Part shown: piece by piece, positions 25,136 through 48,116 of the stretch
How the letters are laid out: the number at the start of each line of letters is the position of its first letter
How positions within the stretch are numbered: position 1 is the first letter of the stretch
Position numbers and translations under genes: made by a program
Notes under the pieces: model-generated
Told to the model about the DNA's origin: nothing
What the model saw: only the letters and a program-made list of their open reading frames with translations
The model's database searches: none
Assembly (NCBI GenBank): GCA_039815185.1
Contig: JBCBZT010000050.1
Span: 1 to 54,441, forward strand
Length of the DNA: 54,441 bases
Direction of reading: 5' to 3'
Origin: Cyanobacteria bacterium P01_A01_bin.123
GTDB lineage: Bacteria; Cyanobacteriota; Cyanobacteriia; Phormidesmidales; Phormidesmidaceae

Positions 25136-25450
25136 ATGACCACCTCTAAGTCATCGAACTTATTTCGACCCATCAATCAGAGCCTGGGCCAACAGCCCTC
25201 CCTGGGGCCAATTCCCGCTAATCTACTTGCCCCCTCTGGTGTCGTTTTGGTCGGTTGTTATGTCCTTGTACGAATCATTTTTGGGCTAGGGTTTGTTCCT
25301 TTTCTGTTCTTCAGTGTTTGGGGCATTGCCACTTGGTGGGTCGTGGTGGGCGAAAAGACCTGGAAATTCACTCAAAAATTTGTGTCGCCACCCCATTGGA
25401 AACGAGGCCATCTGCCTTATCAACCCCTCTTATCTAAAACCCATGAGTAA
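25136..25450 (+). CDS. VirB3-like small membrane protein
   Basis: FRPINQSLGQQPSLGPIP start, two TMs; overlaps the start of virB4. Confidence 0.6.
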   Translation: MTTSKSSNLFRPINQSLGQQPSLGPIPANLLAPSGVVLVGCYVLVRIIFGLGFVPFLFFSVWGIATWWVVVGEKTWKFTQKFVSPPHWKRGHLPYQPLLSKTHE

Positions 25451-29083: not shown

Positions 29084-29085
29084 TC

Positions 29086-30189: not shown

Positions 30190-30224
30190 TTCGCTTTTAG
30201 TTTGTCAGTCGGAGATTTTAGACG

Positions 30225-30971
30225 ATGCAGATAGCGAATCTCAGACGAAAAGTACAGCGGGTCAAGCTCGACTCTAGCGATATCTTGCCCCTAGCGTTTG
30301 CAGGCTTGTCCTTTGGGGTATTTATTCTGGCGATCGCGCTATTTTGGCTCGCCGTTTCGTTTTCCAAGTTGGCTAGCCAGCCGGTGCCGACGCTGGTTCA
30401 ACAGGTGGATGGACAGGCTTTTACCGTCCGTGCTGCCGATAGGCTCTACCGAGAACCGGAACTGATTCGCCAGTTTGTCAGCCAATGGGCGGTGATGACG
30501 TTCACCTGGGGGGCACCGCCGGATCAGCAGGATGCCCCAGTAGATGAAGGCATGGCCGTTACGGGACATCACCGCATCCCAACGGCGGCTTGGCAGGCTT
30601 CGTTGGCGTTGGCTCCCGATTTCCGAGATGCCTTTATCGAGCAGTTGGCAAATGAGGTGGTGCCTGATGGGGTGTTTGAGGGCAAGGTCTCTGCGGTGCT
30701 GATTCCGCAACACATTTCTCAACCCCAGACAGCGGGAGAAGGCTATTGGCAGGTTGATTTGGTGGCCACTCGCATCGTTTTTGATGAGGCGAACCCGACA
30801 GGCCAAACGATTCCGTTTAATCGCACGTTTTACATCAAGGCGATCGAGCCGCCTCAAGAACCCTTGATTTCAGATGCCTCTGAGTATCAGCAACTGATCT
30901 ACCGCATGTTAGAAGGCGGGGTGCAAATCGAAGAGATTCGTCCCCTACAGCAGGAGGATTTGCCATCATGA
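30225..30971 (+). CDS. VirB8-like protein
   Basis: Single N-terminal TM, PTLVQ, periplasmic domain with WQVDLVATR. Confidence 0.55.
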   Translation: MQIANLRRKVQRVKLDSSDILPLAFAGLSFGVFILAIALFWLAVSFSKLASQPVPTLVQQVDGQAFTVRAADRLYREPELIRQFVSQWAVMTFTWGAPPDQQDAPVDEGMAVTGHHRIPTAAWQASLALAPDFRDAFIEQLANEVVPDGVFEGKVSAVLIPQHISQPQTAGEGYWQVDLVATRIVFDEANPTGQTIPFNRTFYIKAIEPPQEPLISDASEYQQLIYRMLEGGVQIEEIRPLQQEDLPS

Positions 30972-32542
30972 GTTCCACCTCTGAACAGTCGATGACGACT
31001 GAGGAATTGAGAGAACTGACCAATGCCCCGGCGGTTGATGAACCGTTGGTAACGCCCGCAGATTTTGAACCTGACGATAATCCGTCCATCCGTCCGATTT
31101 GGAAAATGCCGTTGCCCAAACTGGGGGTGATTGCCATTCTGCTGATTCCAGTGTTTGGATTAGCCGGGTATTTTCTGGTGGGCGGTCGTCAAGGAAATGT
31201 GGCTGATCAACACCAAGCTCCCACTCAGAGCGAGACGGCTGAGCGTGATACTAGCGATCAATCCGTAGCAGAACTTGATCAACTGCGCCAAGAGAATGAA
31301 ACGCTAAAGGCCAATTCTGCTTTGGACGGGCAGGCATATTTGGTGGGTGAAAAATCGGCTCCTGAACCGAGGGAGAGAACGGAGGCGATCGCGCCCAGAC
31401 CTGAACCCTCAACCCCATCTCCACCCAGACCCTCAAGTCAAAATAGGGCAACTTCTCCAACCGTTGTCAGTTCTCATCCGACAACAACACCAGCCGATGT
31501 TGCCATGGCATCCAGTCCAACCCATCCACCCAGATCACCCACACAATTTTCCGATCCAACGGAGCACTGGCAGTATCTTTCACAGTTAGGCAGTTACGGT
31601 TCCCTTGCTGCCTCTCCTGATGACGCTGATGTCGTTGAAGATCCTGTGGCAAAGCAGCAGGCAATCATCGCTTCTGCGGTTTCTGAGACAGAGGCGCAAC
31701 TGGTATCGACTCGGTTAGATACAAGGCCAGCCAATGATTCGCCCATCCTAGATGACGAGAGGAAGATCCCTTCGGAACTACCTGATGACATCAGTGATGT
31801 CGAGAATTTTTCCCCAGCCCAAGCGCTAACTGCCTCAATGGAGGGAAGAGCGGAGTCCCATATCCTGCACGAAGCCGAAGCAGTCATTTTGGAGGGGGCA
31901 TCAGAACCACCAACACTCACAGCCGGAACAACCGCCACTGGACAACTGGCTACACCCTTAATTTTTGAGGATTCAGAGAGTACGGATCGCTTTGTGGTAG
32001 TGCTGACAGAACCCCTGAAAGATGCCCAATCGCGAATCGTTTTGCCAGTCGGGAGTCAGCTCCTCGTCCAAGTAGATCAACTCACTGATGAAGGCTTGGT
32101 GGATTTATCAGTAGCTGAGGTGGTTTGGACAGAAGGTAATCAGCAACACGAGGTGGTTTTACCGGAGCAGGCGCTTCAGATTCGCGGGGAAGATGGCAGT
32201 CCGATCATCGCTGATCGATTTGAAGACTACGGAGCTGAAATGGCGATGAGGGATATGGAGCAGTTTTTGCTTGGAGCTGCTCGCAGAACGGCTGAACTTT
32301 ACACCCGTTCAGCGACAAGAGTTCAAACCAGTGGCAGCAGCACGGTGATCACAGAAAGTAACCCCGCTCCCAATATTTTGGCTGGTGTGCTGGAAGGGGG
32401 CACTGACGCCATTCTCGACACGATCTCTGAACGTAACCAGCAAGCAATGGAAGCACTTCAAGATCGTCCGGATGTCCGCTTTGTAGAAGCGGGTCGCCCG
32501 GTGCAGATCTTTGTCAATCAATCGGTGCAGCTGCCGATCTAA
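30968..32542 (+). CDS. virB10: TrbI/VirB10-like protein
   Basis: TM, coiled coil, Pro-rich linker, C-terminal beta domain ending AGRPVQIFVN. Confidence 0.75.
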   Translation: MSSTSEQSMTTEELRELTNAPAVDEPLVTPADFEPDDNPSIRPIWKMPLPKLGVIAILLIPVFGLAGYFLVGGRQGNVADQHQAPTQSETAERDTSDQSVAELDQLRQENETLKANSALDGQAYLVGEKSAPEPRERTEAIAPRPEPSTPSPPRPSSQNRATSPTVVSSHPTTTPADVAMASSPTHPPRSPTQFSDPTEHWQYLSQLGSYGSLAASPDDADVVEDPVAKQQAIIASAVSETEAQLVSTRLDTRPANDSPILDDERKIPSELPDDISDVENFSPAQALTASMEGRAESHILHEAEAVILEGASEPPTLTAGTTATGQLATPLIFEDSESTDRFVVVLTEPLKDAQSRIVLPVGSQLLVQVDQLTDEGLVDLSVAEVVWTEGNQQHEVVLPEQALQIRGEDGSPIIADRFEDYGAEMAMRDMEQFLLGAARRTAELYTRSATRVQTSGSSTVITESNPAPNILAGVLEGGTDAILDTISERNQQAMEALQDRPDVRFVEAGRPVQIFVNQSVQLPI

Positions 32543-32582
32543 TTCAGCCTAAATCTACTATTTCGTATCAGAGGAATCGGCT

Positions 32583-33272
32583 ATGAAACCCCAACTCATA
32601 GTCCTGGGAGGCTTATTGTCCATTTTTGGATTTTCTCCTCCAATCCAGGTTCAAGCAATTAATCTCCCATCGGCTGCTGAAGCTCAGGCGGGGAGACAGC
32701 CCATGAGGGTTGAACTCTACCCAGGCTATGGCGTCAATCTAAACTTTCGACCCACTGGCGAAACCATCCATCGGGTCTGGTTAGATGATCCGTCTCAAGT
32801 CACCCTCGACTTTGATGACCCTGGCTGCGCTGACCTGGGTGAGCCTGGAAGCTGTGCTGCGACGGTTATTCATTTACGTCGGATTAACCCACTGGAGTTT
32901 CCTGAACTTCCTGCTTCAGACTCAACCCTGCTGACCGTGCTGACTGCACAGAATCTCTACGAATTTCGGCTGACGTTTCCCACATCAGGCACGGCGACCT
33001 ATACCACGCTCGAAATTCAGCCTGAGGAGGCACCGCCTCATTCCACTCCCATGACTTTAGCCCAAATTCAAGGGCAAAGTGGCGCTGCCGTAATTGAACA
33101 GGGGCTAAGCGTTGCCGAAGCGCGATCGCTGATTGCGACAGATGATCCGCTCTGGGAAAGGATTCAGTCATTTCTAATCCTGCTGCGTGGAGGCACCCCG
33201 GCAGCAGAGGCGGCAGCAGAAGCGGGAATTTCTTCTGCCCTGGTAATGCGACTAGCAGAGCTAGGTCAATAA
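32583..33272 (+). CDS. VirB9-like secreted conjugation protein
   Basis: Signal peptide; GYGVNLNF..GETIHRVWLDDPS; operon position. Confidence 0.55.
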   Translation: MKPQLIVLGGLLSIFGFSPPIQVQAINLPSAAEAQAGRQPMRVELYPGYGVNLNFRPTGETIHRVWLDDPSQVTLDFDDPGCADLGEPGSCAATVIHLRRINPLEFPELPASDSTLLTVLTAQNLYEFRLTFPTSGTATYTTLEIQPEEAPPHSTPMTLAQIQGQSGAAVIEQGLSVAEARSLIATDDPLWERIQSFLILLRGGTPAAEAAAEAGISSALVMRLAELGQ

Positions 33273-33293
33273 CTGTCCATCGGAGGCACTGTC

Positions 33294-35570
33294 ATGGCGA
33301 TACAACCTGCCGTCCGAAAATTGATTCGCACTCTGGGATTGGGGCTAGCTGGCGTTGCCCTGTTGTTCGGGCTGCTGATTTCCCAAGGAAAGCTTGCTGC
33401 CAGTATCAGCCCAAATCCGGCGATTCCCACTACCGCGATCGCGCTGGAAGAGGGCTACGCTCAGCTCCCTGACTGGGCTCAGATCACCCTCCGTACACTG
33501 CCCCCGATCCTATCAGATGGGGGATTTGAGGCTCCCTCAGATCTGATCCAAACCTTGGGCTATGACCTCTCCCGCATTTGGCGAGCTGGGCAAACCGCAG
33601 ACACTTACCTCAAGCTGGGTGATCTTCAAACCAGCCTCTATCCTCAACTTTTCAACCTTTACAGCATTGCCCAACTCACCGAGCTGGATCTGGGCCAGGT
33701 GGCCTTGAGCACATTTGAAATAGCTACCCGGCAGACTTTGAATGATTGGGTGACTGCGATTCCTGGTTTGGGAAACTACCCAGTTGATCAAATTCCAGCG
33801 ATCGCATCCCTCATTAACCTCACTCGCCCTGATACAGATTTGAGCACCACTCTTGCTGACCTCCTGGCTACCCATTCCGATCTGGGCCAATTGCAGTTAG
33901 GGCAACTGGGGGAACAACTCAGTCAATTTGCCATCACTGATATTCCTGGACTTGAAGCCGTACCGGTCCAGAACCTGATCGATTGGCAAAATAGCTTCAT
34001 CGATCAGGTTCCAGGTTTAGCTGATGTCCCCCTCAGTCAGATGCCTAACCCGATAGAGATGGCAGGGGTAATGGGGACAGTCGATGTGGTCTATGGGCCT
34101 GCTGAACGCGATCGCCACAATACAATTTCCGGCAGCGACCAGGTAGGCTTCAGTGCCACCTGCGACGAAAACTGTGCCCATGTGGAACTCACGGGAACGC
34201 CAGCGCTCCACGGTAAGCAGTGGGTTTCGGGCAAGTATCAGCAGGTGGAGGGAGGGTTTGGCATTTTAGGTGTCGTGAATGGCGGCAAAGAACCCACGGG
34301 TCGTCATCCCTTTGGCGAAGTCTTCAAGGTTTCGATCTGGGATGTGGATGAGTCTACCGGACAGGCGAGTACTGCTCTGCATTTCCGCATCTGTCAGCGC
34401 GGCGGATTCCTCTCGCCCGATCTGGGCTGTACGCCCTACTTCCTAGGGCCAATTCCCTTCCTGAACTACCAAGAAACCGCTCCGATTTTCGTAGGACTGC
34501 TGGATGATCAAGGCGGTGCTTCCAGTCCGGCTTCAGTCCCTTCAGGGGTGCTCGAACAGGCCAGAGCCATGGGAATCCCCGCTTCAGCACTGCCAGGACA
34601 GGCTGGTGGTTTCCTGGGAGACGGTTCCCTGTGCGGCGAAGGCCCAGGTGGTGTGGATTTTGCGGCTTTAGCAGCAGCGTTTTCAGATATTGAAGGTAAC
34701 TACGGGTCTGTGGGTGCCTATGTCTGCGATCGCCGGGGGACGTGCGGGCGAGGCTTAGGCCGCTACCAATACATGAGTTACCGCTCGGACGTCCGCCAAC
34801 TGATCAGTCAGCGGGAAGGGGGAGCCGCATTTCTGGCTAAAGTCGATTCTGGCGCAGCCATCAGTTCAGCAGAAATAGAACGATTTCTTCCCGCCAGTGA
34901 CCAAGACAGTATTTTCAAAGCCGATCAGACCCGCAATATTGAGCAGGCCACAGGAGAAGGCTTTTCGGGCGATCGCTTAATTGAGCGCGTGGGTCAAATT
35001 CACCTTGGCGGGGCTGGTGCTCCCATTGATGGCAGTGCTTCCGATGTCCATGGGCGATTGACGTTAAAAACCTATGGCGAAGAGCTGAGCCAACAGTATA
35101 AAAGCGCTGTCGCCGCTGGGGCTGGTGGTTCTTGTGCGGCGAAGGGGGATGTTGGTGGTACGCCGCCATCGGGTGAACTCAATCAGCGGGTTTATGAATC
35201 CTTGGGAGAAATGGGTCGATTTGACACCTCGTCTGGGCCAGATGGCGGCAACTTAGCCTGTGCTTGGGCCGTGAATCGAGTTTTGGAAAATGCTGGCATC
35301 GCCCCAGTGGGAAGCAATCCCAACTATGTGCCTTCCGTTGAAAGCGTCTTGCAAAATGGACGGGGCAGTCAGATTAACCAGAACCAATCGCAGGCCGGAG
35401 ATATTGTAATCGCCCCCAACGGGCATCACATCGGCTTTTGTCTGAACGATGGCTGTACCCAAGTGCGCTCGAACTCGTCAAGCCGAGCCCAGTTCACTTG
35501 GGATTCTAATTTCAATTTCGATGGGGTTTACGGCGGTGGTCAAAGCCGCGTTTATCGGCTCGGTTCTTAA
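33294..35570 (+). CDS. Conjugation-associated cell-wall hydrolase (lysozyme-like plus CHAP/NlpC-like domains)
   Basis: Signal peptide; IPGL repeats; IEGNYG...GLGRYQYM; C-terminal ACAWAVNRV...GDIVI...HIGF. Confidence 0.6.
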   Translation: MAIQPAVRKLIRTLGLGLAGVALLFGLLISQGKLAASISPNPAIPTTAIALEEGYAQLPDWAQITLRTLPPILSDGGFEAPSDLIQTLGYDLSRIWRAGQTADTYLKLGDLQTSLYPQLFNLYSIAQLTELDLGQVALSTFEIATRQTLNDWVTAIPGLGNYPVDQIPAIASLINLTRPDTDLSTTLADLLATHSDLGQLQLGQLGEQLSQFAITDIPGLEAVPVQNLIDWQNSFIDQVPGLADVPLSQMPNPIEMAGVMGTVDVVYGPAERDRHNTISGSDQVGFSATCDENCAHVELTGTPALHGKQWVSGKYQQVEGGFGILGVVNGGKEPTGRHPFGEVFKVSIWDVDESTGQASTALHFRICQRGGFLSPDLGCTPYFLGPIPFLNYQETAPIFVGLLDDQGGASSPASVPSGVLEQARAMGIPASALPGQAGGFLGDGSLCGEGPGGVDFAALAAAFSDIEGNYGSVGAYVCDRRGTCGRGLGRYQYMSYRSDVRQLISQREGGAAFLAKVDSGAAISSAEIERFLPASDQDSIFKADQTRNIEQATGEGFSGDRLIERVGQIHLGGAGAPIDGSASDVHGRLTLKTYGEELSQQYKSAVAAGAGGSCAAKGDVGGTPPSGELNQRVYESLGEMGRFDTSSGPDGGNLACAWAVNRVLENAGIAPVGSNPNYVPSVESVLQNGRGSQINQNQSQAGDIVIAPNGHHIGFCLNDGCTQVRSNSSSRAQFTWDSNFNFDGVYGGGQSRVYRLGS

Positions 35571-35602
35571 TGTATTTGCACTTGATAAGGAGACTCAAAC
35601 TG

Positions 35603-36127
35603 ATGAAAAAATCTCACATCCGACAGCTCAAGCGAATTTGGAGAGGCGTAATGCGGCATTGGTTAGGTTGGAGTGTGCTGGCGATATTGCTCATCCCCAC
35701 GGTCGCGATCGCCCACAATAGCCAATTTTGGTCATCTCAATCACCTGTCCAGGTAGCTCAAGGGGTGGAGCAAACATTGACAGCCCTGGCTTCCCAACCG
35801 CCAGAGACTTTAACGCAAGCCCCTGAGACCACTGAAGAGATTCACGCGGAAGTCGCTCAGATAACGCTCGATGCTCTACTGGCAGAGACAGAAGAGTCCA
35901 CGACTGAACCCGAGGTCTATAGAACCATCATCCAGGGAGACTATGCCCTAGCTACCTGGCGGTGGGGTGAAGGTGGGGGTCAAAGCGTCCTTTCAAAAGA
36001 ATCTGGAGACTGGCAGGTACTCAGCTCCGGTGGTGGTGTGGTTGATGTGTCCACCCTCGAAGAGTTGGGCATACCTGCTGACATCGCCCAAATGCTGATT
36101 GAACAAGATCAAGCGGATTGGGAGTAG
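35603..36127 (+). CDS. Membrane-anchored hypothetical tra protein
   Basis: RBS AGGAG; TM helix; GDYALATW..GEGGGQ domain. Confidence 0.6.
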   Translation: MKKSHIRQLKRIWRGVMRHWLGWSVLAILLIPTVAIAHNSQFWSSQSPVQVAQGVEQTLTALASQPPETLTQAPETTEEIHAEVAQITLDALLAETEESTTEPEVYRTIIQGDYALATWRWGEGGGQSVLSKESGDWQVLSSGGGVVDVSTLEELGIPADIAQMLIEQDQADWE

Positions 36128-36131
36128 TCCG

Positions 36132-36686
36132 ATGCGGATCAAACCTTTGCTGGTGAAAACAACTGCTGGGGTAATGCTGATATTTTCTGCGATCGCGGTC
36201 TTTGCAGCCTTACCTGAGGATGCTACAGAAACTAATTGGCAAAGTGCATCCCATGCCCCGAGCAAGCTTCTCGACCAGGTTGTTAGCGACAACTTGCCTT
36301 CTGATCTGTCGATCGATGCCACCCAAATGCAGGTGTGGGAAATCCAGCTTGCCGGACAACCAGCCCCACTCTACTTAATTGATACTCGCGTTGCTGACAA
36401 TGCCGAAGATCCAGCCGGTAATCCTCTGTGTGGAGCATTGGGCTGTGCCTTTTTCGGCTACGTCCTGACTGATGGCAATTACGAGAAGGTGCTGGATGCC
36501 TATTTCAAACCCGAACTTCCCCCAGAGGTGCCGCTCTTTGAATTAGCCGAAGCGCTGCAAAATGACCTGCCCGTGTTGAAGGTCAATCAACTCGAAGGCG
36601 ACCAAATTCAGCAGTTCACCCTGGTTTTCAACAACGGGCAATACGAAAACGTAGAAATTCAAACGCTGCCGCAGCGCTATGAGTAA
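36132..36686 (+). CDS. Secreted hypothetical tra protein
   Basis: Signal/TM segment; PLCGALGC motif; tight operon spacing. Confidence 0.6.
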   Translation: MRIKPLLVKTTAGVMLIFSAIAVFAALPEDATETNWQSASHAPSKLLDQVVSDNLPSDLSIDATQMQVWEIQLAGQPAPLYLIDTRVADNAEDPAGNPLCGALGCAFFGYVLTDGNYEKVLDAYFKPELPPEVPLFELAEALQNDLPVLKVNQLEGDQIQQFTLVFNNGQYENVEIQTLPQRYE

Positions 36687-38397
36687 CGAGTCGCCCAATC
36701 AGTTACAACTCATTCAAGCTTTGCCAGAACCATTACAAGACGTGGCTCAATCGTTGATCCAGTCTGGCATGGGCACGATGCTCGTGGGTCTGCTCCTGCT
36801 CGCAGGTGCGATGCACTTGTTTTCAAGCAAGCGGGGTAAGCTTTCGACTGGGCGATTTGCTGGACGCCCTGAAACCTGGGCCGCTCAGGCAATGGCTAAA
36901 AAGCAACGAAAACAGCAGCGGCCTCATCAGGTTGCACTGAAAGCAGGTAATCTAGCCATCCCCAATGCTCAACAAAGCCTTGCCGTTGCCGGAGCGCCCG
37001 ACTCAGGCAAGACGTTCAGCATTATCGATCCAGCCATTCGCGCCGCGATCGCCCAGGGATTTGCCCTAGTCGTATACGACTTTAAAGGCAGTCAGCTCGA
37101 AGCCCACGCAGCATGGGCGGCGTCCCAGGGCTATCAGGTTTCGATTCTCGCGCCGGGTCAACCCTACTCCGATGTGTGCAATCCCCTGGACTTCTTGGCA
37201 GATGAAACCGACTCGTTAATGGCGGCACAACTGGCCCAAGTACTGCAAAAGAATACCCAGCGCGGCGGGGCTTATCGAGACAATGACTTCTTCACGAGCG
37301 CGGGCACCAATCTCGTCGAAGCTGTCATGCTGCTGGCCAAGCTGACGCCTTACCCAGACTTACTCATGGCCAGCAAGATTCTCAATCTGTCAGAGCTGCC
37401 CGCTCGTATCCGAGCCGCTGGGGATGCAGGCTTGATTCCCCCCTGGACTTTAGAAAGCTTCAGCCAACTGATGGCCTCAGATGGCGCTGAGAAACAGATT
37501 GCAGGCATCATCGCCACCGCCCAACGCACGTTCAAAACCTTTACGGGCAAGCAACTGTTTTCGAGCTTTTGCGGCAAAACTACCATCCCCTTGAAGTTTG
37601 AGGGCAAGCAGTTGCTCTTCTTGCAGGTCGATATCCAGAAACGTGATGCTGTGAGTCCGCTTTTGGCAGCAGCGCTGCACCTGGTGGTCAGCCACAACTT
37701 TGCTCATCCCCGCGAAACCCCACTGGTGATCGCGCTGGATGAATTGCCCACGCTCTACTTACCCGATTTACCCAAGTGGATTAATGAATTCCGCTCCTAT
37801 GGATTTGTCGGGCTTTTGGGCTATCAAAACTTTGCCCAGCTCCAGCATATTTATGGCCGAGACCTCTCCAGAGCCCTGTTTGCCGCCTGTGGCACCAAGG
37901 TCTTTTTCAACCCCAAAGACCGCGAAACGGCCCAGGAATTTTCTAGCTACCTGGGCGAAAAGGATGTGAAATTCTATGCCCATTCGCGGGGACGGGGCGG
38001 CTACAACCGCTCAGAACAGTTTCAACGGGTACCGTTACTCACACCGGATCAAATTCTCAAGCTGGATCAAGGGGAATGTATCTTGATCAACTCGGCCTAC
38101 AAAGGCAGTGGCGAAGCGTCGGTTCCCCTACGCACCAAAGTGAAGATTCCTCGGCAAGAGATCCGCACCCAACAGCGGAGTGTGGCTTTGTGGCATGGCC
38201 AGGTGCGCGATCGCTTAATTCAACGTGCGACCCAACGCCAACCCGCTGCTGATTTGAATCACGAAAACGAAGTGCGCCAAGAAATAGCCGAGCGCCTGTT
38301 TCCCTTACCGCTAAACCAAGGGGGAGCAGACTCAGGTCACGACCAAAATTTTGATGCCGATATCACTGAAGACGAATACGACGAAATTTTTAGATGA
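36679..38397 (+). CDS. virD4: Type IV coupling protein VirD4/TraD
   Basis: N-terminal TM, GAPDSGKT, YDFKG, ALDELPTL, GYQNFAQL, FSSYLGE. Confidence 0.9.
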   Translation: MSNESPNQLQLIQALPEPLQDVAQSLIQSGMGTMLVGLLLLAGAMHLFSSKRGKLSTGRFAGRPETWAAQAMAKKQRKQQRPHQVALKAGNLAIPNAQQSLAVAGAPDSGKTFSIIDPAIRAAIAQGFALVVYDFKGSQLEAHAAWAASQGYQVSILAPGQPYSDVCNPLDFLADETDSLMAAQLAQVLQKNTQRGGAYRDNDFFTSAGTNLVEAVMLLAKLTPYPDLLMASKILNLSELPARIRAAGDAGLIPPWTLESFSQLMASDGAEKQIAGIIATAQRTFKTFTGKQLFSSFCGKTTIPLKFEGKQLLFLQVDIQKRDAVSPLLAAALHLVVSHNFAHPRETPLVIALDELPTLYLPDLPKWINEFRSYGFVGLLGYQNFAQLQHIYGRDLSRALFAACGTKVFFNPKDRETAQEFSSYLGEKDVKFYAHSRGRGGYNRSEQFQRVPLLTPDQILKLDQGECILINSAYKGSGEASVPLRTKVKIPRQEIRTQQRSVALWHGQVRDRLIQRATQRQPAADLNHENEVRQEIAERLFPLPLNQGGADSGHDQNFDADITEDEYDEIFR

Positions 38398-38412
38398 CTT
38401 AGGAGAAGCCTT

Positions 38413-38775
38413 ATGAACATCACGAACAATCCATCGTCCAACCCGGAGACCTGGGGACTTTCACCCCAAACCGTTAACGTCCTGGCGCAATCACCGGAGA
38501 TCCTTACAGACTTGGCCCACAGCCGAGCTTTACCGCCCCTGCCCCCTGGTTATGTGCCCCAGGTGGTTGAGGTGTTATTCGACGACGTTCCTTTTATTCG
38601 ATCTGAGGGAGGTAATGTCACGTTCTTGCGGGACTGCCGCGCCGCGTATGAACCCACGCTGATCGAATACCGCTTTGACGATGAGACAGCCGTGCTTCAA
38701 GTCGGTGGCGAGTATGTGGTGAATCGAATCAAAGGCATTGCCCAGGTGACGGTACTCACGAGTCTTTTGAATTAA
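38413..38775 (+). CDS. Hypothetical protein
   Basis: RBS AGGAG; 120-aa ORF within the operon. Confidence 0.65.
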   Translation: MNITNNPSSNPETWGLSPQTVNVLAQSPEILTDLAHSRALPPLPPGYVPQVVEVLFDDVPFIRSEGGNVTFLRDCRAAYEPTLIEYRFDDETAVLQVGGEYVVNRIKGIAQVTVLTSLLN

Positions 38776-38788
38776 GGAGGGCAAAATC

Positions 38789-40420
38789 ATGGTGTTTACT
38801 ATCAATCCAGCCGATGCCCAGGCGATCCAAGAAGATGAAGCCCAACTTGTTGCTGCCATTCTGCAAGCGACACGGGGACTTACGGCCAACACGTCGCTAT
38901 CAGCCAATCCTCAAGCGGCTGAAACTTTGCGAATTCAGATGGGACGACGTTTGGTTTATGGCCAGATGGCAAATGGTGCCTTTCGCAATGAGCTGAATGC
39001 TGACTCGATGAAGCTGATCTGGGATGCTGTTCAGCAGCCCGTTACCCCTGGTGCTTCGCCAGAAGCTTATCAAGGCAAAGTGCCCGCGATTGAAATCCGC
39101 AATGGTGACGACATTCTGTTTCGAGAAGAGCGCGATGGTACCGTTACCGTTAACCAAATTCAGTTTCAACTCGACCAGCCGATAGCGCCGCCTTTGAGAG
39201 GGGTGCCTGAATTGCCGAACGGTAGGGTAACGGTTCCAGAGGAAGCCCCTACTAAAATTCAGGCCATTGAAGATGCGGATTGGAAAGCAGACGATATTGC
39301 CCAGATTGCCAGCCATCTGCTGAATCCTTTAGGGACTGACCAGCCCATTTACAAATCGGTGACACTTCAGGGTTACACGATCGATCAGGACGGGGCTCAA
39401 CTCACGGTCGCTCGGGAGGGTCAGTCCATTGTGGTGGCTGAAAATGACGCTGTCGTTGAGAACAACATTACCCAACAGGACTGGCAGTGTTTTCAACGCA
39501 TTCAGCGCGGGTTGCTGGTTCAACAGCCTGTGGCTCAACCTGCTGCTGAGCTGAATGGAAAACAGGATGGACAAAGGGCAACTGTTCTCACATTGCAGGA
39601 TGCCAGAGCTGATAAAGATGTCCCACCTGCGATCGCAGTCCTCCAGAATCAACTCGCGAAACTCCCCGAAGGCCCAACCAAAACCCTCCTCCAAACCACA
39701 ACCCAAGTTTGGCAGCAGCAGATCCAACCGAGTCTTCAAGCCGGACTCAAACAGGGTATGAATTGGTTAGCCTCTCGACCTCAGGCTTTTCGCCAGGACT
39801 CAGCAGCCCGAGCCGCGTTGGACTTGTTTAATCGAGGCTATGAGCGTACGGGAGAAAAAACCTATGGGCTGGAGGGTTTTCGGCTAAGCCTCCAAGGTCT
39901 CAATCTCTACACCCTGAGTGACTCAAAAGGCACACTGCTCCGGTTTCAGGCGTTTCAATCCCCCATTCCTGGCATTCGACGCCAAACCCTCAAAATTCTC
40001 GACGACAATGGTGCTGCCCAACCGTCACGATTGACGCCAGCAGTAGTTGGGTCTCTACGAGAACTACAGCGTAACCCCCATGCCATGCCCAGAGGGAATC
40101 TCGACCAAGAATCGGTCTACGCTGCCAAAACCAACAAAGTTGAGAAAACGGTACAAACGTTTCTGACCACGCAAGTGCGAGCTAACGTTTGGGATAGGGA
40201 AGGCGGTCGTTATCGCTTCGAGTTGGGTGACGGCGAAACGCTGCGAATCATTGATAAGCAGGGCGATCGCGGTTTAGTTTATCAGCGCCATAAGGGCGAA
40301 GTGTATTCTCGCCTAGGGGTAGCAGATTTTGCCCACTTTGACCAATTGGCCAATCGGCTTCAACGGCTGAATCAACCCGTCGCCAAGGCAAGTAAATCCC
40401 ACGGACTAGAAATCAGTTAA
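38789..40420 (+). CDS. Hypothetical plasmid protein, possible T4SS substrate
   Basis: RBS AAGGAGG; 543 aa; basic C-terminal tail KASKSHGLEIS. Confidence 0.7.
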   Translation: MVFTINPADAQAIQEDEAQLVAAILQATRGLTANTSLSANPQAAETLRIQMGRRLVYGQMANGAFRNELNADSMKLIWDAVQQPVTPGASPEAYQGKVPAIEIRNGDDILFREERDGTVTVNQIQFQLDQPIAPPLRGVPELPNGRVTVPEEAPTKIQAIEDADWKADDIAQIASHLLNPLGTDQPIYKSVTLQGYTIDQDGAQLTVAREGQSIVVAENDAVVENNITQQDWQCFQRIQRGLLVQQPVAQPAAELNGKQDGQRATVLTLQDARADKDVPPAIAVLQNQLAKLPEGPTKTLLQTTTQVWQQQIQPSLQAGLKQGMNWLASRPQAFRQDSAARAALDLFNRGYERTGEKTYGLEGFRLSLQGLNLYTLSDSKGTLLRFQAFQSPIPGIRRQTLKILDDNGAAQPSRLTPAVVGSLRELQRNPHAMPRGNLDQESVYAAKTNKVEKTVQTFLTTQVRANVWDREGGRYRFELGDGETLRIIDKQGDRGLVYQRHKGEVYSRLGVADFAHFDQLANRLQRLNQPVAKASKSHGLEIS

Positions 40421-40436
40421 ATCAGGGAAGGTTAAG

Positions 40437-40811
40437 ATGCGCTTCTACATCAGAATTCCTACCTATCTCGTCATCACTGTTTTGATTGGGTTCATTGGTC
40501 TGTTTCAAACCCTGAATCCGCCTCGACCAGAAGCGGTGTATTCAAACCCTGAGACGGCTGAAGAGTTTCTGCGACGGGGTGAACTCTACGCCGATCGCCA
40601 GGAGTATGAAAAAGCCCTGGCGGATTACGTCCGGGCTGAACAGCTCGACCCTACCGATAGCCATGTCTATTTGAAAAAAGGGTCGGCCTTATCAGCACTC
40701 AACGAGCCAGAAGCCGCTATCGAGCAGTACGAGAAAGCCAAAGCGATGTCTGAACATGGTGGCGCTCTGCTGCAATACCGAATCGATCAAGAGCGTCAAA
40801 AGCTTCAGTAG
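40437..40811 (+). CDS. Small TPR protein with an N-terminal TM
   Basis: RGELYADRQEYEKALADYVRAEQLDP and KGSALSALNEPEAAIEQYEKA TPR units. Confidence 0.8.
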   Translation: MRFYIRIPTYLVITVLIGFIGLFQTLNPPRPEAVYSNPETAEEFLRRGELYADRQEYEKALADYVRAEQLDPTDSHVYLKKGSALSALNEPEAAIEQYEKAKAMSEHGGALLQYRIDQERQKLQ

Positions 40812-40840: not shown

Positions 40841-43800
40841 ATGAGTCATCCCGCACTCGTGGAATATTTTGTTGGCTGTTTTCTCAATGGAGAACAGTTC
40901 CCCTCAATCGTTCAGGCGCGATCGCAGGCCGCTCGTATTCTGGGCAAGTCTGTCAAACCTGGCAGTGCCGAAGCTAAACAGGTGGATGAAGCCGTAGAAG
41001 CTGCGGTGGTGAGAGCTGCCCGTGTGCTTGTGACCTCAGCCCCAACCCGCGAAGATGCCCACGATCAACTGGTTGATCTGCTTGATCGTCAACCAGGACT
41101 TAATGTCCGCAGTTCCACTAGCGTTTTACAGCAGGCGTACAGCACCCCAGTGCCGATCGCATTTTTGGCGTCAGTTCTGGCGGGAATTGGTGCCCAGAAA
41201 TCGGTCTATGAACCCAGTGCAGGCCATGGCGCTTTGCTAATCGCGGCGAATCCAGCCAGGGTTACGGCCAATGAAATCAATCCAGATCGAGCAGCGGACT
41301 TACGCGCCCAAGGCTATGCCGTCACCCAACTCGACGCTACGGATTACTGCCCTGACCATAAGCACGACGTAGTAATTGCCAATCCACCCTTTGGTCGCAT
41401 TCGTGCGCCAGATGGTAAGCTCCAACGATTTGAGATGCCCGGTAATCGTCGCGGAACGGCACAAATTGATCAGGCGATCGCCCTGCAAGCTCTCAACGCC
41501 ATGAAAGACGATGGGCGAGCGGTACTGATTCTCGGTAGCCAATTGGGAGATGAGGACGCGCTGCGCTCAGATCGCTACAACCAATTGACAAGCCGGGGTT
41601 TCTTCAAAGTGCTGTATGAACGCTATGCCGTCGTTGAGCACTTCTCAATCTCAGGTGACCTCTACCGCAAACAAGGTGCAGGCTTTCCCATCGACATGAT
41701 TGTGATTAATGGTCGGGGTACCTCCCAACGTCCATTGCCTGCTGCCGAAGTCCCTCCCCTCTACACATCCTTTGCTGACCTCAAGGAGCGCTTACCCTAT
41801 GAACTCAACCCAACTCAATCCACCGACTTACCCGGAATACAGCAGCTATCCCTTAGTCTGGAAACCCCAACCGACAGGCGATCAAACCCTGTTTTTCGTG
41901 CGAGTCCCCCTCGTTCTCCCGCAGATGAGTTGGCGGCACTACCTCACCCTGATGCAGCTCAGAGTTCAGTGGATGATTTGCAACGCAGCAGAACCCCAGA
42001 TTCAGATTCAACAGCAGTTAGAGACCACCCTCGCCACACTCAACATCAGCCAGGAACCGCCCAGCCCATACGAAACCAGCAACAGTCGGGAACTAGCTCC
42101 CCCCAGTCTTTGGGCCATGACCTGGGCAGAAGCGCTGATCAGCCTCAACGACACCTGGAAAACGAAGTTCGAGATCGAAAACGAAGCCATAACCTTTCCC
42201 TGTTTAGTCAGTCATCCCCGCGATCGCCGGATTCAGCAGCAGTGGCGGGAAGATCACGACGAGATGGGGTTGGAGAGCTGGCTGGCAGATCTGACCCACG
42301 GCATGGACGTGTGAATGAGGAGGCATCGGCCATGCAAACGCCTGTACAACCGCTTCATGTTCCTTATTTACCGCGCAGTCAGGGGCGATCGCCGAAAACG
42401 CTGATTCCTACCAACATGGCAGTGGCGGCGCAGAGTGCGTTGACGCAACTGGAGCGGCAGCGCGGGGATATCGATGAGTTTGTCTGCCAGCGTTTGGGGT
42501 TCGACACCAAAGCCCAGCTTTGGAAAGTCCTCTATGCCGAACAGGTCGATGCTCTAGCCCTCGCCTTCCACCAGCGCGATCAGGGCAAAATCTTCCTCAA
42601 CGGCGATCAAACGGGTAACGGCAAAGGCCGCTTTGGCGCAGCCACCATCCTCGACGCCCAGCGACAGGGATACATCCCCGTCTTCATTACCCAAAAGCCC
42701 AACCTCTACAACTCAATGATTAACGACCTGGCCGATATCGGTCGGCGCGGGTTCAGACCGTTCGTTACCAACAACAATCTCACCCTGAAGCTGGACAGTG
42801 GCCGCAAGCTCAAGACCCTGTCAGCCCTGGATCAAGAAGCCGAAATGCTGCGAATTATGCAGCAGGGGTTGGGCAGCTACGACGCCATTTTCACCACCTA
42901 CAACCAATTGCAAACCCTCAAAGGCAAAGAACCATTTCGGCGGCAATTCCTCAGTGAGATCGCACCTCAAGCTGTATTCATTTTTGATGAATCCCACGAA
43001 GCGGGCGGCAGCACGGGCGAAAGTGCCTGGAAACGAGCCGGAGCTGCACCAGACCGGGCCGAGTTCGTTCGCCACCTGGTAGATACTGCCGCTGGTGCGG
43101 TATTCATGTCAGCCACCGCCACCAAAGATCCAGCCGTCATGGATCTCTACGCCCGCCGCACCGATGCCCGCCATGCAGTTGCCATGGCCACCTTGAAGCG
43201 GGTGTTGCAATCGGGGGGAATTCCCCTCCAGCAAATGATGGCCACTAAGTTTGTTGCCTCCGGTCAATTGCTGCGGCGAGAACGATCCTTTGAAAACATC
43301 ACCTTCCAAGCCCAGGTAGTGCCCGTGGATCGCACAGTGGCAGACGGCATTTCCGCGATCATGCGGGCCATCAATGCCTTTGATCAGGCCAAAGAAAAAG
43401 CGGTTTCTGAACTCAGCAAAGACCTGAAAAAAGAGGCCAAACGTTTTAGCCAAGACCACGCTATCGGCCAAGCCGGGGCTAAATCGACCAACTTCACCTC
43501 CCTGATGCACAACGCCATCGATCAGGGTTTATTGGCGCAAAAAGCAGAAGCGACAGTACAAGCTGCGATCGCCTCATTGCAAAACGGTGAGAAACCCCTG
43601 ATAGCAGTTGCTTCCACTATGGATGCCTTCATCAACTGGTACACCGAAGAAAACTGCATCGAACCGGGTGACGCCCTGCAAATCACCTTTGGCGATGTCC
43701 TGGCTCGGTATCTAGAGCGCTCCCGTGACGTGCTAATCAGCAATTACGAAGGCGTGATTAACCGCCAACGACTGACGGATGCTGAAATTGGCCCCGATGG

Positions 43801-46800
43801 AGTCGCCGCCTACCAAGCTGCACAAGATTTGATTGCCAACACCGATCTGTCTGCTATTCCCCTCAGCGCCATTGACTACCTCAAATGGCGACTCCAGCAG
43901 TTGGGCTACAGTGTCGATGAAATCACTGGACGGCAAAACATCGTGGCCTACATTGCCACGGGCGAAACAACCTATGGCCGCCGCTCCAGTCGCGACACCA
44001 ATCCCCAAAGCAAGGTCAATATCGTCAATCGCTTCAACAGCGGCCAGTTGGATGTGGTGATTCTCAACCGCTCGGGGGCGACGGGCATTAACCTCCATGC
44101 TTCAGAACAATTTAGTGACCAACGGCCCCGTCACATGATCGTGGCTCAGGCTGAGCGGGATATTAACCAGGTGATGCAGATGCTGGGTCGGGTGAATCGC
44201 TTTGGCCAGGTGGTAGAACCTAAATTCACGCTGTTGATGAGTGATTTGCCTGCGGAGAAACGCTTGGGAGCCTTGCTCTCGAAAAAGATGGCTTCCCTCA
44301 ATGCCAATACCACTGCGGCCCGCGATTCGGATCTCTCGGTCAGCAGTGTGGGCGATTTTATGAACAGTGTTGGGGAAGAGGTGATTACCGAAATCCTGGA
44401 AGCCGATCCTGAACTGGAAGCGCGACTCTCGTATCCTTCGCGCAATCTCCAGGGGTCAACGGAAACTGAATTGATCAGCCGGGTGACGGGGCGGATTCCC
44501 CTGCTTTCGATTGTGGAACAGGAAGACCTCTATGGCCTGATTGAATCAGAAACCCAAACGCTGATTGCCCAACGGGAGGCTTTAGGTGAGAGTCCGCTCA
44601 GGGCGCAACAGCTCGATCTTGATGCTCGTACGATTGCCAGGATGCAGGTGATTCCCGATGACAGCGAGATTGATAGCGAGTTCACCGGGCCAGTATTTTT
44701 GGAAGTGGTGGATGCCAAGGTGCCGATTAAGCCACCGACTCAGCTCCAGGTGGTGAATACGATCCGCGGACAGCTTGAGCTATCGAAAGTCCGGCAATTA
44801 GACGCGCATGATTTCGATCAGGTGCGAGAGCTGGCCATCAATCAACACCAACAGCTGGCCACAAACCTGACATCTCAAACCGACACTTATCGTCAGCAAA
44901 TGGTGAGCCAGAAGCGAGATGCTGAAGCGGTGATTCGGCTCCGCGATCGCCTCGATAGACAGCTCACCCACATTGTCACCACCCTGAACCAGTTTCCGGT
45001 CGGCACAACCGTCCAGGCGATTACCCCGGAACAAAACATTGCCTATGGAGTCGTCACCCGCATAGTACAAAAAGGAGCCCGAGGCAGTCCCGCTGCCCCC
45101 ACCAACTGGCGTATCCATATCCTTACTGATCAAGGCCAACCGCTTCAGATTCCCCTTTCCCGCTTCAATACCGACCGCAGTTCTGCCCTATCTGTGCGTC
45201 CAGAAACCCAAAACTGGCGCGGTGAATCCATCTACGACGCCTTTGACTTGCATCAAGCTGAACAGCGCACAACCCGCCAGATTTTTACAGGCAACATCCT
45301 CAAAGCCTACGAAAAATATCCCCAGGGTAAGTTTCTCAACTACACCGACCACCAGGGCAATGTGCGGCAAGGTCTGATCATGCCTGCCAGCTTTGACATT
45401 CAAGACGAGCTGCGTCAAGAACCTGTGGCTTTTCGTGAGCCAGATCAGGCGATCGCGTTTCTCACCAACATCAGCAAATACCAGGGCACGGTTAAAGACT
45501 TGGAGCAGGTTTTAACGATCCGGTCTCAGAAGGCGGTGCGGTTTGGTCAGGGAGAGGCAACAGGCTTTGTGTTGCAAACGCCCAAAGCGACTTCAGTGGG
45601 TGGCAAGTATTTTCTCAATGAAGACTTGTTAGCGGCGATCGGGTCAGATTTTTACTCCGTGGGCGATCGCATGGAGGCTATTGTCCCAGCGGAACAGCTC
45701 AAGCAGGTGCTCCAGGTGCTGATGGTAGAGCAGCACATCACGCTGGCAGCTTTTGACTTCAAGGAACATGCCCGCGAGTATCTGGGTGAGGAATTGCCGG
45801 AGTTGGAGCTGATTGAGTCTGGTGAGTTTGAGCAGAAGGGTAACTACGTGCCCTTTGTGCCGGAACCGACCGAAATGGATCGAATGCGGCTAGAAGGGTT
45901 ATTAGAAAACGACGCTGAACCATTCGCCGCAGAGACAGTAACCACCAACGCTGAACCAACAAACGCTGAATCAACAAGAGTTCTACCTGCCAAACAGCAA
46001 ACGGGTGGCCCTGAGAAGACGATCGCCAAATTGCTCGAACAGGCAGGACTGGCTGAAGCGGTGAAGCAGGGGGAAGCGTTTCATCATCGAATTGAGAATG
46101 AGCCGTTTATTCCGTTGGTGATTGAGCGCCATAGCGATCGCCTCTATTTGACCCATTACCTCACCGAAAACGGGGATATGTTCATCGATACGGAGATGGT
46201 GTTTGCCCTGTCTGAAGAGGGCAGGTTGTCTCTGACAGAAACAGCAGTCCAGTCGATGGGAGGGGAATTTCGGGGCTGCGATCGCAGCTTTGCCCACCTC
46301 TTTGCCCGCAACTTGTCACATCAAGGCTTTGCGGAAGCGGCATTAGCCCAGTCCACTCAAACTGCTGAAACCTCAACTTCATCAACGGCAGAAGCGGATT
46401 TAGCCACCCGGACAGAGCCGCCTGATCCCAAAGATACGGACAGAAACGGTTCAGACGATGTTCTGGAAGCTCAAATTCGTCACGATCTGAAGCAATCTGA
46501 ACCCGCACTGCCAACGCCATCCCCAGTCCAAATCAACCTCAAAGACCTAGCCAATCAGGTACGCGAAGCGGATCTCGAAGCGGTGGCCGCAGAACTGGGA
46601 TTGAAACAAGACCGCTACGACAAGCACAAATGGAAGGATGACAGCCATGCCCACATCATCAGCATCAACGGTGGCAAGTTCATGGACTGGATCGCGGACT
46701 ATGGCAGTGGTGGGGCGATTGACCTGGTAATGCATGTGCAGCAGGTGGAGTTCAAGGCGGCGGTGGAGTGGCTATCGGGGCAATCTTTAACACCGCAATC

Positions 46801-47713
46801 TGTCTATCCTAAGGAATCAAGGCAACCTGAGCAGATCGAGCCTCGTCGGTTAGAGATGCCGACGCCTAGCGAACGTCGATGGCCTGCGGTTCAGCACTAT
46901 CTCGTCGAAACCCGAGGACTGCCCAAAAACCTGGTGACTTACCTGCATGACCGGGGCATGATCTACGCTGACCCCTATCAAAATGCGGTTTTTGTGCGCT
47001 ATGGTATTTCACCGGATCAGCCTTGGAAGCGGCATGAACCGACAGGAGCGAGTCTGCGAGGCACTTGGGGCGTAGGAAATTCGTTTCGTGGCATGGCTCC
47101 TGGCACATCACGGGAGAATGGTTGGTTTTGGATTGCTCTGGGCCGAGGAGCGGTGCAGCGGGTATTTCTAACGGAGTCACCGATTGATGCGCTGTCGTTG
47201 GCAGTTTTGGATCGCAAGCGTCAAGGGTCGGAGCAGGGTACGGTTTATCTCTCGACGGATGGGGTAGGCAGTGTACCCATTGCTGCCTTGCAATCTGTTC
47301 TGAACCAAGGGGGACAAGTGATTGCAGCCTTTGATGCCGATTTAGCCGGGGAAAAGATGGCTTGGCGAATTGCCGAGCAACTGCCTGGGATTCGGCGGGT
47401 CACCCCTGCGGTAGGGAAAGATTGGAATGAGCGATTGTTGGCAGAAAGTAAGCAAATCAAATCGCCTAACCCGCAAAAGCAAAAGCTGAAGGCGCTGTGG
47501 CGTTGGTATCGTGGGGCTGTAGCCTTAGGCAAATCGCCTCAGTATCTGTGTCGCATTACAGAGGTTGCTAGGGAATTCCTTCAAGGAGAACCACTGTCGG
47601 CAAGGGCAAAGGCTGCAATGCATCATGATTTATCGCAGTTGAAGTATCAGCAGCAGGTTAGCAATGCAGGCAGAATTCAGACCAAGGTTTCAGAGCGTGG
47701 TCAGTCTGTTTGA
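40841..47713 (+). CDS. Giant DarB-like protein: DNA methyltransferase + strawberry-notch SF2 helicase + DUF3991/Toprim primase
   Basis: QQAYSTP, YEPSAGHG and NPPF (MTase); DQTGNGKGR, FDESH, SATA, GINLHA and QMLGRVNRFGQ (helicase); GGAIDLVMH, TESPIDALS, AFDADLAG and KDWNE (Toprim). Confidence 0.88.
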   Translation: MSHPALVEYFVGCFLNGEQFPSIVQARSQAARILGKSVKPGSAEAKQVDEAVEAAVVRAARVLVTSAPTREDAHDQLVDLLDRQPGLNVRSSTSVLQQAYSTPVPIAFLASVLAGIGAQKSVYEPSAGHGALLIAANPARVTANEINPDRAADLRAQGYAVTQLDATDYCPDHKHDVVIANPPFGRIRAPDGKLQRFEMPGNRRGTAQIDQAIALQALNAMKDDGRAVLILGSQLGDEDALRSDRYNQLTSRGFFKVLYERYAVVEHFSISGDLYRKQGAGFPIDMIVINGRGTSQRPLPAAEVPPLYTSFADLKERLPYELNPTQSTDLPGIQQLSLSLETPTDRRSNPVFRASPPRSPADELAALPHPDAAQSSVDDLQRSRTPDSDSTAVRDHPRHTQHQPGTAQPIRNQQQSGTSSPQSLGHDLGRSADQPQRHLENEVRDRKRSHNLSLFSQSSPRSPDSAAVAGRSRRDGVGELAGRSDPRHGRVNEEASAMQTPVQPLHVPYLPRSQGRSPKTLIPTNMAVAAQSALTQLERQRGDIDEFVCQRLGFDTKAQLWKVLYAEQVDALALAFHQRDQGKIFLNGDQTGNGKGRFGAATILDAQRQGYIPVFITQKPNLYNSMINDLADIGRRGFRPFVTNNNLTLKLDSGRKLKTLSALDQEAEMLRIMQQGLGSYDAIFTTYNQLQTLKGKEPFRRQFLSEIAPQAVFIFDESHEAGGSTGESAWKRAGAAPDRAEFVRHLVDTAAGAVFMSATATKDPAVMDLYARRTDARHAVAMATLKRVLQSGGIPLQQMMATKFVASGQLLRRERSFENITFQAQVVPVDRTVADGISAIMRAINAFDQAKEKAVSELSKDLKKEAKRFSQDHAIGQAGAKSTNFTSLMHNAIDQGLLAQKAEATVQAAIASLQNGEKPLIAVASTMDAFINWYTEENCIEPGDALQITFGDVLARYLERSRDVLISNYEGVINRQRLTDAEIGPDGVAAYQAAQDLIANTDLSAIPLSAIDYLKWRLQQLGYSVDEITGRQNIVAYIATGETTYGRRSSRDTNPQSKVNIVNRFNSGQLDVVILNRSGATGINLHASEQFSDQRPRHMIVAQAERDINQVMQMLGRVNRFGQVVEPKFTLLMSDLPAEKRLGALLSKKMASLNANTTAARDSDLSVSSVGDFMNSVGEEVITEILEADPELEARLSYPSRNLQGSTETELISRVTGRIPLLSIVEQEDLYGLIESETQTLIAQREALGESPLRAQQLDLDARTIARMQVIPDDSEIDSEFTGPVFLEVVDAKVPIKPPTQLQVVNTIRGQLELSKVRQLDAHDFDQVRELAINQHQQLATNLTSQTDTYRQQMVSQKRDAEAVIRLRDRLDRQLTHIVTTLNQFPVGTTVQAITPEQNIAYGVVTRIVQKGARGSPAAPTNWRIHILTDQGQPLQIPLSRFNTDRSSALSVRPETQNWRGESIYDAFDLHQAEQRTTRQIFTGNILKAYEKYPQGKFLNYTDHQGNVRQGLIMPASFDIQDELRQEPVAFREPDQAIAFLTNISKYQGTVKDLEQVLTIRSQKAVRFGQGEATGFVLQTPKATSVGGKYFLNEDLLAAIGSDFYSVGDRMEAIVPAEQLKQVLQVLMVEQHITLAAFDFKEHAREYLGEELPELELIESGEFEQKGNYVPFVPEPTEMDRMRLEGLLENDAEPFAAETVTTNAEPTNAESTRVLPAKQQTGGPEKTIAKLLEQAGLAEAVKQGEAFHHRIENEPFIPLVIERHSDRLYLTHYLTENGDMFIDTEMVFALSEEGRLSLTETAVQSMGGEFRGCDRSFAHLFARNLSHQGFAEAALAQSTQTAETSTSSTAEADLATRTEPPDPKDTDRNGSDDVLEAQIRHDLKQSEPALPTPSPVQINLKDLANQVREADLEAVAAELGLKQDRYDKHKWKDDSHAHIISINGGKFMDWIADYGSGGAIDLVMHVQQVEFKAAVEWLSGQSLTPQSVYPKESRQPEQIEPRRLEMPTPSERRWPAVQHYLVETRGLPKNLVTYLHDRGMIYADPYQNAVFVRYGISPDQPWKRHEPTGASLRGTWGVGNSFRGMAPGTSRENGWFWIALGRGAVQRVFLTESPIDALSLAVLDRKRQGSEQGTVYLSTDGVGSVPIAALQSVLNQGGQVIAAFDADLAGEKMAWRIAEQLPGIRRVTPAVGKDWNERLLAESKQIKSPNPQKQKLKALWRWYRGAVALGKSPQYLCRITEVAREFLQGEPLSARAKAAMHHDLSQLKYQQQVSNAGRIQTKVSERGQSV
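41799..42314 (+). CDS. Putative nested 171-aa gene in the +1 frame of the giant gene's linker
   Basis: AAGGAG 10 nt before ATG 41799; globular-looking sequence where the main frame is low-complexity; stop is followed by GAGGAGG and an in-frame ATG at 42332. Confidence 0.55.
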   Translation: MNSTQLNPPTYPEYSSYPLVWKPQPTGDQTLFFVRVPLVLPQMSWRHYLTLMQLRVQWMICNAAEPQIQIQQQLETTLATLNISQEPPSPYETSNSRELAPPSLWAMTWAEALISLNDTWKTKFEIENEAITFPCLVSHPRDRRIQQQWREDHDEMGLESWLADLTHGMDV

Positions 47714-48106: not shown

Positions 48107-48116
48107 AAAATTTGCC

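Follow-up and report, generated by a model that had tools for sequence, protein, structure and literature searches.

A conserved gene nested out of frame within a methylase-translocase gene of a cyanobacterial conjugative element encodes an acidic protein predicted to bind the translocase

The comparisons reported here show that a giant gene of a cyanobacterial contig contains, in its +1 frame, a second, conserved protein-coding gene, which we call X (171 aa; 41799..42314, plus strand). On the evidence of its start signals, its conservation in relatives, and the selection acting on its frame, X is almost certainly a real gene. Its product is an alpha/beta protein with a pI of 4.8 that is predicted, from an AlphaFold2 fold and a modelled complex, to bind in the cleft of the helicase encoded by the surrounding gene. 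The window analysed is the whole contig (54,441 nt).

The host of X is a 2290-aa gene (40841..47713, plus strand; ORF list and domain searches) that encodes, in order, an N6-adenine methylase, a disordered linker, a Strawberry-notch SF2 translocase, DUF6908, DUF3991, and Toprim_2. The methylase module (about residues 1-320; 40841..41800, plus strand) has, as read from the sequence, a TP motif, EPSAGHG, and NPPF motifs, and matches DNA methyltransferase PHROGs (E 5e-9). The Strawberry-notch helicase core, which is the predicted partner of the nested protein (residues 504-1203; 42350..44449, plus strand), comprises AAA_34 and Helicase_C_4; the C-terminal domains DUF6908, DUF3991, and Toprim_2 occupy 46016..47434 (plus strand; Pfam), and the Toprim part is absent from some relatives. 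With AAA_34 and Helicase_C_4 scoring above cut-off and an N-terminal NPPF methylase present (Pfam, PHROGs), the host is, by its domain content, a Strawberry-notch methylase-helicase of the plasmid and phage type. The gene lies downstream of a co-oriented conjugation region (25293..40811, plus strand; domain searches) that encodes a VirB4-like ATPase, TrbI/VirB10, a TraG/VirD4 coupling protein, and a TPR protein, and we therefore assign it to a conjugative element. In searches of plasmid records and genome loci the relatives of the host gene are cyanobacterial, and the laboratory strain Picosynechococcus PCC 7002 has a locus with the nested gene on pAQ6. A scan for promoters and terminators gave signal at chance level. 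Immediately after the giant gene (47813-54441) come, on the minus strand, cas2 and a fused cas4-cas1 gene, and then a CRISPR array of ~60 repeats. At 4567-22619, genes of the CHAT, NACHT/pentapeptide, caspase-nSTAND1, and eCIS-core types are clustered; they may be cargo for defence or signalling. Across the L014-L059 blocks, methylase identity and helicase identity are nearly uncorrelated (0.05-0.33); the sequences suggest that methylase modules are swapped between elements.

The initial annotation proposed that the +1 frame of the linker holds a 171-aa ORF with its own AAGGAG ribosome-binding site, and inspection of the sequence confirms its coordinates, its peptides, and its Shine-Dalgarno sequence (SD): the ORF runs from an ATG at 41799 to a TGA at 42312-42314, and the AAGGAG (41783..41788, plus strand), which is itself encoded within L-K-E codons of the host frame, stands 10 nt before the ATG. 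The Ser/Arg/Pro/Gln-rich character ascribed to the linker is likewise evident, frame 0 over the ORF having 25 S, 21 R, 18 P, 15 Q, and 15 D in 172 codons. An upstream ATG at 41709 (201 aa), at which the ORF lister opens the frame, was rejected as the start because relatives do not keep it; their ATG is at the offset equivalent to 41799, and many have a +1 stop just upstream. X has the features of nested out-of-frame genes of the mobB and traH type, namely a complete ORF, initiation signals of its own, and both frames open. When the codons of the window gene were redrawn synonymously with the frame-0 protein fixed, the +1 frame stayed open in 2.7% of redraws; over 47 sequences the median was 2%, and in one locus the probability reached 0.18. 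No off-frame ATG ORF of at least 143 aa occurs in the 141,404 codons of the helicase parts of the same 47 genes, where the longest has 124 aa, and other off-frame ORFs in the helicase region (85-124 aa) were set aside as looking like unconserved shadows. The SD duplex energy at the start of X is -5 kcal/mol or lower in 44 of the 47 relatives, versus 15% of internal helicase ATGs.

To avoid circularity, loci were chosen by their methylase alone, which gave 50 genome loci. The methylase end and the helicase start are both present in 40 of the 50, and 39 of these 40 linker-spanning loci have the +1 ORF, its ATG shifted between loci by a few codons at most. In the one exception, L048, stops break the locus and a deletion affects both the end of the methylase and the nested gene, of which a fragment is retained. 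Four of the 10 loci without an anchor were inspected further: L039 and L058 still show the nested ORF, and in L036 and L050 the sequence diverges beyond the methylase, close to a contig end. Counted over 50 distinct loci, with three duplicates left out, the ORF is present in 49, at a length of 143-175 aa. Metagenome loci (n=28, some duplicating genome loci) have a complete ORF in 19 cases and one cut by a contig end in 3; one further locus is interrupted by an insertion, one is without helicase and ORF, and four were not scorable. Decay is also seen in L135, where an insertion interrupts the nested gene, and in L150, where a methylase runs into C-terminal sequence with no helicase between.

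The TBLASTN search and AlphaFold model that had been proposed as checks on the 171 aa yielded plasmid relatives and a confident fold. Six plasmid records match at 31-37% identity, all beneath an annotated helicase gene and all six with X in +1 and frame 0 open. Annotation pipelines usually miss the gene, as had been expected: X is missed in all six of these first-matched records, but RefSeq calls the Gloeobacter counterpart. A profile search gives the X family 59 clusters at 50% identity; of 10 clusters looked up, mostly from short contigs, none is named beyond 'hypothetical protein'. Among 401 sampled genomes of the phylum, 8 match X, its own genome included, and a word-index search for X returned three relatives only and no longer forms. 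Four family members (P0028, P0036, P0037, and P0046) share an N-terminal extension of 30-45 aa. In P0069 (459 aa, two contigs) X stands in frame behind the methylase as a natural fusion, and in P0049 the reverse is seen, a frame switch from X into the linker frame. The P0069 cluster also holds separate X and truncated methylase fragments, the latter suggesting decay.

Selection on the two frames was assessed with 47 distinct sequences, from which 17 disjoint close pairs were taken for site counts. Identity in +1 exceeds identity in frame 0 in 1079 of 1081 pairs, these pairs not being independent of one another. In the 17 disjoint pairs, differences at +1 codon positions 1, 2, and 3 number 258, 210, and 547, respectively, and changes per site amount to 0.293 where the change is silent in +1 and replacing in frame 0, 0.399 where it is silent in both, 0.088 where it is replacing in both, and 0.076 where it is replacing in +1 only. 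Changes that replace +1 residues are few whatever their effect in frame 0, and therefore the +1 protein is under constraint and none is detected on the linker residues, a pattern of purifying selection on the nested frame. Stops in frame 0 number 0 in the 47 genes, versus a median of 7.5 expected per gene; frame 0 is stop-free beyond expectation, and therefore the full-length fusion also appears to be needed. We conclude that these alignments show a frame 0 that is kept open and whose residues are under no detectable constraint. Alignment of homologous giant genes, a check suggested by the initial annotation, finds the +1 frame open and more conserved than frame 0 in the linker, and the homologs do not show the +1 stops and missing ribosome-binding sites that had been named as counter-evidence for X (ORF in 39 of 40 loci, good SD in 44 of 47). 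The 'low-complexity linker' of the host appears to be largely a by-product of the codons of X, which would make the 'disordered linker' the shadow cast by a concealed gene. In bacteria it is uncommon for a long gene to lie wholly inside another and to be clearly under selection.

These results bear on two other accounts of the ORF. That it is an unexpressed shadow of a compositionally biased linker is scarcely credible: biased linkers do deplete off-frame stops, to the point that an open frame has a probability of 0.18 in one locus, but the third-position excess in +1 (258/210/547), the conserved SD and ATG, the confident fold, and the RefSeq annotation of the Gloeobacter counterpart as a protein all argue against it. 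Very unlikely, too, is a frameshift account, in which ribosomes slipping into +1 would make a methylase-X fusion and the restart would supply the helicase. A start of its own is indicated by the conserved SD and ATG of X (44 of 47), by the +1 stop just before the ATG in many loci, by a frame 0 that is kept open, and, as weak evidence, by the search for longer forms that found none; the fused form of P0069 and the reverse frame switch of P0049 fit frameshifting, but the fusion cluster holds truncated methylases that suggest decay.

AlphaFold2 predicts the X monomer with pLDDT 94.3 and pTM 0.89, and the protein is strongly acidic, with a median net charge of -13 across the family. No family match for X was found in Pfam, NCBIfam, PHROGs, or PADLOC, and Pfam run over 71 X members gave scattered single matches only. 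Among PDB sequences the best match to X had E 0.78; the ESM Atlas gave no usable match for P0001 or P0024; Foldseek of X against PDB and BFVD gave 0 matches at E 0.001; and a VIA wide fold search reached at best Z 4.0 (rmsd 2.0, 46 aligned). The phage counterpart described below has no fold match either (best Z 3.5). Absence of a fold match for X does not establish a new fold.

Across 38 full-length loci, with close pairs removed (630 of 703 pairs kept), the identity of X correlated with that of helicase blocks at Spearman 0.53-0.79 and with that of methylase blocks at 0.35 and 0.45; the pairs are not independent, and linkage as well as the swapping of methylases confounds the values. Because X follows the helicase more closely than it does the methylase, the helicase core was picked as the partner, the sole one, for modelling of a complex. 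With custom alignments, for which calibration is only rough, the X-helicase complex scored 0.64 (runs 0.71, 0.64, and 0.63) and the best of three controls 0.00; the mark used for complex scores, roughly applicable here, is reached by 116 of 157 solved pairs and 2 of 215 mismatched pairs. The runs share at least 81% of contacts, with a partner pLDDT of at least 81, and two unrelated like-sized proteins on the same helicase score 0.00. Recall of a like complex is not evident, because no solved relative of the partner helicase is found among PDB sequences.

The predicted contacts fall at host residues 618-621, 645-650, 687-693, 924-936, 1029-1032, 1077-1082, and 1105-1113, with further contacts at the helical insert 848-894 and 965-973. 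We take the contacted helicase stretches to be motifs Ia, Ic, IV, IVa, and V. In SF2 enzymes these motifs touch the nucleic-acid backbone, according to the available part of PMC5473145. The contact columns of X have a mean net charge of -7 and are less conserved (0.33) than its other columns (0.49, a value to which the buried core contributes); the tightest contacts are made by a variable loop. On the helicase side the contact residues are net neutral (8 K/R, 9 D/E), and none of the listed contacts lies in residues 764-821, the helicase window that follows X most closely. An acidic surface at the DNA-binding site, a DNA-mimic trait, is seen in the predicted model only. Judged by this model, X probably binds the Strawberry-notch motor across both RecA lobes, at nucleic-acid-binding motifs. 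The suggestion that the nested protein could be a regulator or chaperone gains support from its co-segregation with the helicase and from the predicted complex.

To define the range of the arrangement, 12 more distant plasmid and phage records were covered by three-frame translation of 1.5 kb and by profile scan. A +1 ORF at the linker place occurs in three of the 12 (Gloeobacter, Thalassospira, and Bacteroides phage BS-TP4), and the Gloeobacter nested protein is a member of the X family (E 6e-7); by the same translation and scan the nested ORF is missing in 9 of the 12, so the enzyme can exist without one. In the Gloeobacter morelensis plasmid (L080:3198-3647) RefSeq annotates the nested protein (WP_230844304.1) and a helicase from an overlapping ATG; frame 0 is open from the methylase, yet the annotation table shows no methylase gene. 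In a Persicobacter plasmid (L073:2273-5699) two separate genes that overlap encode the methylase and the Strawberry-notch helicase, and a nested ORF is lacking.

Among viral loci, an ORF of 103-144 aa stands at the linker place in 43 of 43 that are BS-TP4-like (Bacteroides-phage-like), and a nested ORF is also present in 5 of 5 others; patterns from the cyanobacterial methylase found no viral locus. The phage nested ORF shows the same selection pattern as X in 10 pairs, and its protein is predicted with pLDDT 91.7. Comparison of the X and phage profiles by hhalign gave 0.2% directly and 9% when a bridge profile was placed between them, scores that decoys also reach. The order of secondary structure is similar in the two predicted models, and the sequence L130 matches both profiles, with E 3e-12 and 0.002 in a set of 29 sequences. 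The phage nested proteins are positional counterparts, and at most candidate homologues, of X. In a helicase tree of 39 rows (42 were offered, and three had no match or too short a match), 26 nested-bearing rows form one 100/100 clade, all 26 having the nested ORF; the phage group is separate, with its placement unresolved, and the nested-ORF label needs two changes.

A third product of the locus had been predicted from signals just after the nested stop, and these are present as described: GAGGAGG (42317..42323, plus strand) and, at 42332, an in-frame ATG that may open a 1793-aa, methylase-less translocase-Toprim isoform (42332..47713, plus strand). The SD at 42332 is the strongest among the 40 in-frame ATG contexts of the host gene (-11.5; next, -6.8). 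Across relatives, an in-frame ATG occurs in the stretch from nested stop to helicase start in 37 of 47 sequences, versus 22.7 expected, a count that kin inflate; of these 37, only 14 carry a good SD, and the rate of Met per codon is hardly elevated (0.038 versus 0.031). ATG and GTG alternate at the same restart position in one clade, and the nested stop overlaps the helicase ATG (ATGA) in Gloeobacter and Thalassospira. No restart is present in L033, L038, L040, L043, L057, and L059, six loci in which the segment after the nested stop is very short, and the Bacteroides-phage group has no Met between the nested stop and the helicase start. Judged from its context, the restart at 42332 is somewhat likely to be used, and restarts appear to be an optional, lineage-specific feature; the third product is thus plausible at this locus but not universal.

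According to the mechanism that we propose, one mRNA of the cyanobacterial conjugative element would yield the full methylase-translocase and, separately, the acidic 171-aa X, translated from a ribosome-binding site hidden in the last codons of the methylase; ribosomes ending X may re-initiate at 42332 and give a methylase-less motor. X would serve as an acidic stand-in for DNA that keeps the translocase and its attached methylase off donor DNA, or folded for export. To X as an occluding inhibitor (an inhibitory plug) or chaperone of its own translocase, as the modelled complex suggests, we give about half of our belief. X is a polypeptide of its own and would therefore remain behind while the giant protein travels with the transferred DNA, and the enzyme would be freed of X in the recipient; export of the giant protein and its anti-restriction role there are assumed by analogy to DarB (PMC5512222). 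In its broadest form the proposal, which we offer tentatively and lean slightly against, is that X represents a widespread, almost unannotated family of unmatched fold, encoded in the gene of the enzyme that it inhibits, which plugs the Strawberry-notch DNA groove and whose coding sequence doubles as an inter-domain tether, so that enzyme and off-switch would be genetically inseparable and physically parted on delivery (by conjugation or in a virion), from cyanobacterial conjugative elements to gut Bacteroides phages. If the model is true, it would show how a mobile element keeps a methylase-translocase harmless in the producing cell, and a natural inhibitor would be a handle on bacterial Strawberry-notch motors, an SF2 family for which no solved relative was found here.

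X may instead bind the motor as a positive partner that loads it, confers specificity or processivity on it, or acts as an adaptor presenting the giant protein to a secretion system or capsid, in the manner of TraH and MobB with relaxases or of Ulx beside DarB. The conservation, co-segregation, and complex evidence fit this equally, and precedents exist in RP4 TraH, an acidic stabiliser of the relaxosome whose gene lies within traI in another frame (PMC7314908, available part), and in Ulx, which appears along with DarB among P1 anti-restriction internal proteins (PMC12810830, available part). We nevertheless consider a positive partner somewhat unlikely: the predicted site covers the DNA-gripping motifs, which suits occlusion better than loading; X lacks similarity to Ulx, as which it was rejected (hhalign probability 0.07%); and a nested ORF occurs at the same place in conjugative elements and phages despite their different delivery machines. 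It is, in turn, quite unlikely that the target of X is the methylase, of which it would be a specificity or inhibitory subunit, or lies in the host, where it could serve for example as a DNA-mimic anti-restriction protein; the helicase model would then be a generic artefact of an acidic protein in a groove. Such a role accords with the natural methylase-X fusion P0069, with the strong acidity of X (median net charge -13), and with its variable interface, but X tracks the helicase more than the methylase, and has no PADLOC, PHROG, NCBIfam, or Pfam match, and the two unrelated like-sized proteins score 0.00 on the helicase. We continue to prefer an occluding inhibitor or chaperone of the translocase.

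Ocr and ArdA are small acidic mobile-element proteins, DNA mimics that block a DNA-processing enzyme by binding to it. Unlike these, whose targets are host restriction enzymes, X is predicted to target the enzyme whose gene contains it, and no sequence or fold match of X was found. A literature search, mostly of papers open without subscription and of their main texts, found no description of the nested gene. In phage P1 (L160), same-strand ATG ORFs lie inside darB at 10538-10894 (118 aa) and 11765-12148 (127 aa). The available part of an account of polyvalent proteins (PMC5512222) names Ocr and ArdA and describes a methylase-SF2 dyad, with P1 DarB as archetype, that includes a Strawberry-notch variant; for this dyad that part makes no mention of a nested gene or an internal restart. 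Like the dyad as described there, the host joins an N6-adenine methylase with TP and NPPF motifs to an SNF2-related motor and is found near conjugation genes or in phages (PMC5512222). The label 'DarB-like' given by the initial annotation is apt for this methylase-plus-SF2 architecture but not beyond it: Pfam files the motor under Strawberry-notch, and the host gene was rejected as a P1 DarB orthologue (BLASTP best E 0.033, short patches only). With regard to the DarB-like functional class (delivery with DNA, cis protection from type I restriction), what is seen here is conjugation-gene context only.

Closer parallels for the nested gene itself come from conjugative and mobilisable plasmids. 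X resembles RP4 traH in traI in being an acidic accessory protein encoded in another frame within the gene of a DNA-processing enzyme (PMC7314908, available part); it differs in that TraH is a relaxosome stabiliser, whereas X is predicted to lie in the helicase DNA groove, and the host enzymes differ. In RSF1010 (IncQ), the available part of PMC2200642 describes a mobA/repB fusion with mobB nested in a different frame and RepB' as a separate C-terminal protein, and reports that repB translation required a modified initiation region after mobB removal. Like RSF1010, the element studied here has a fused two-enzyme gene with an accessory gene in another frame, and in RSF1010 the C-terminal part is made separately; unlike RSF1010, which joins a relaxase to a primase, it joins a methylase to a Strawberry-notch translocase, and its putative restart appears to be lineage-specific. 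By this analogy, a three-product layout of the kind proposed here would have a precedent in RSF1010.
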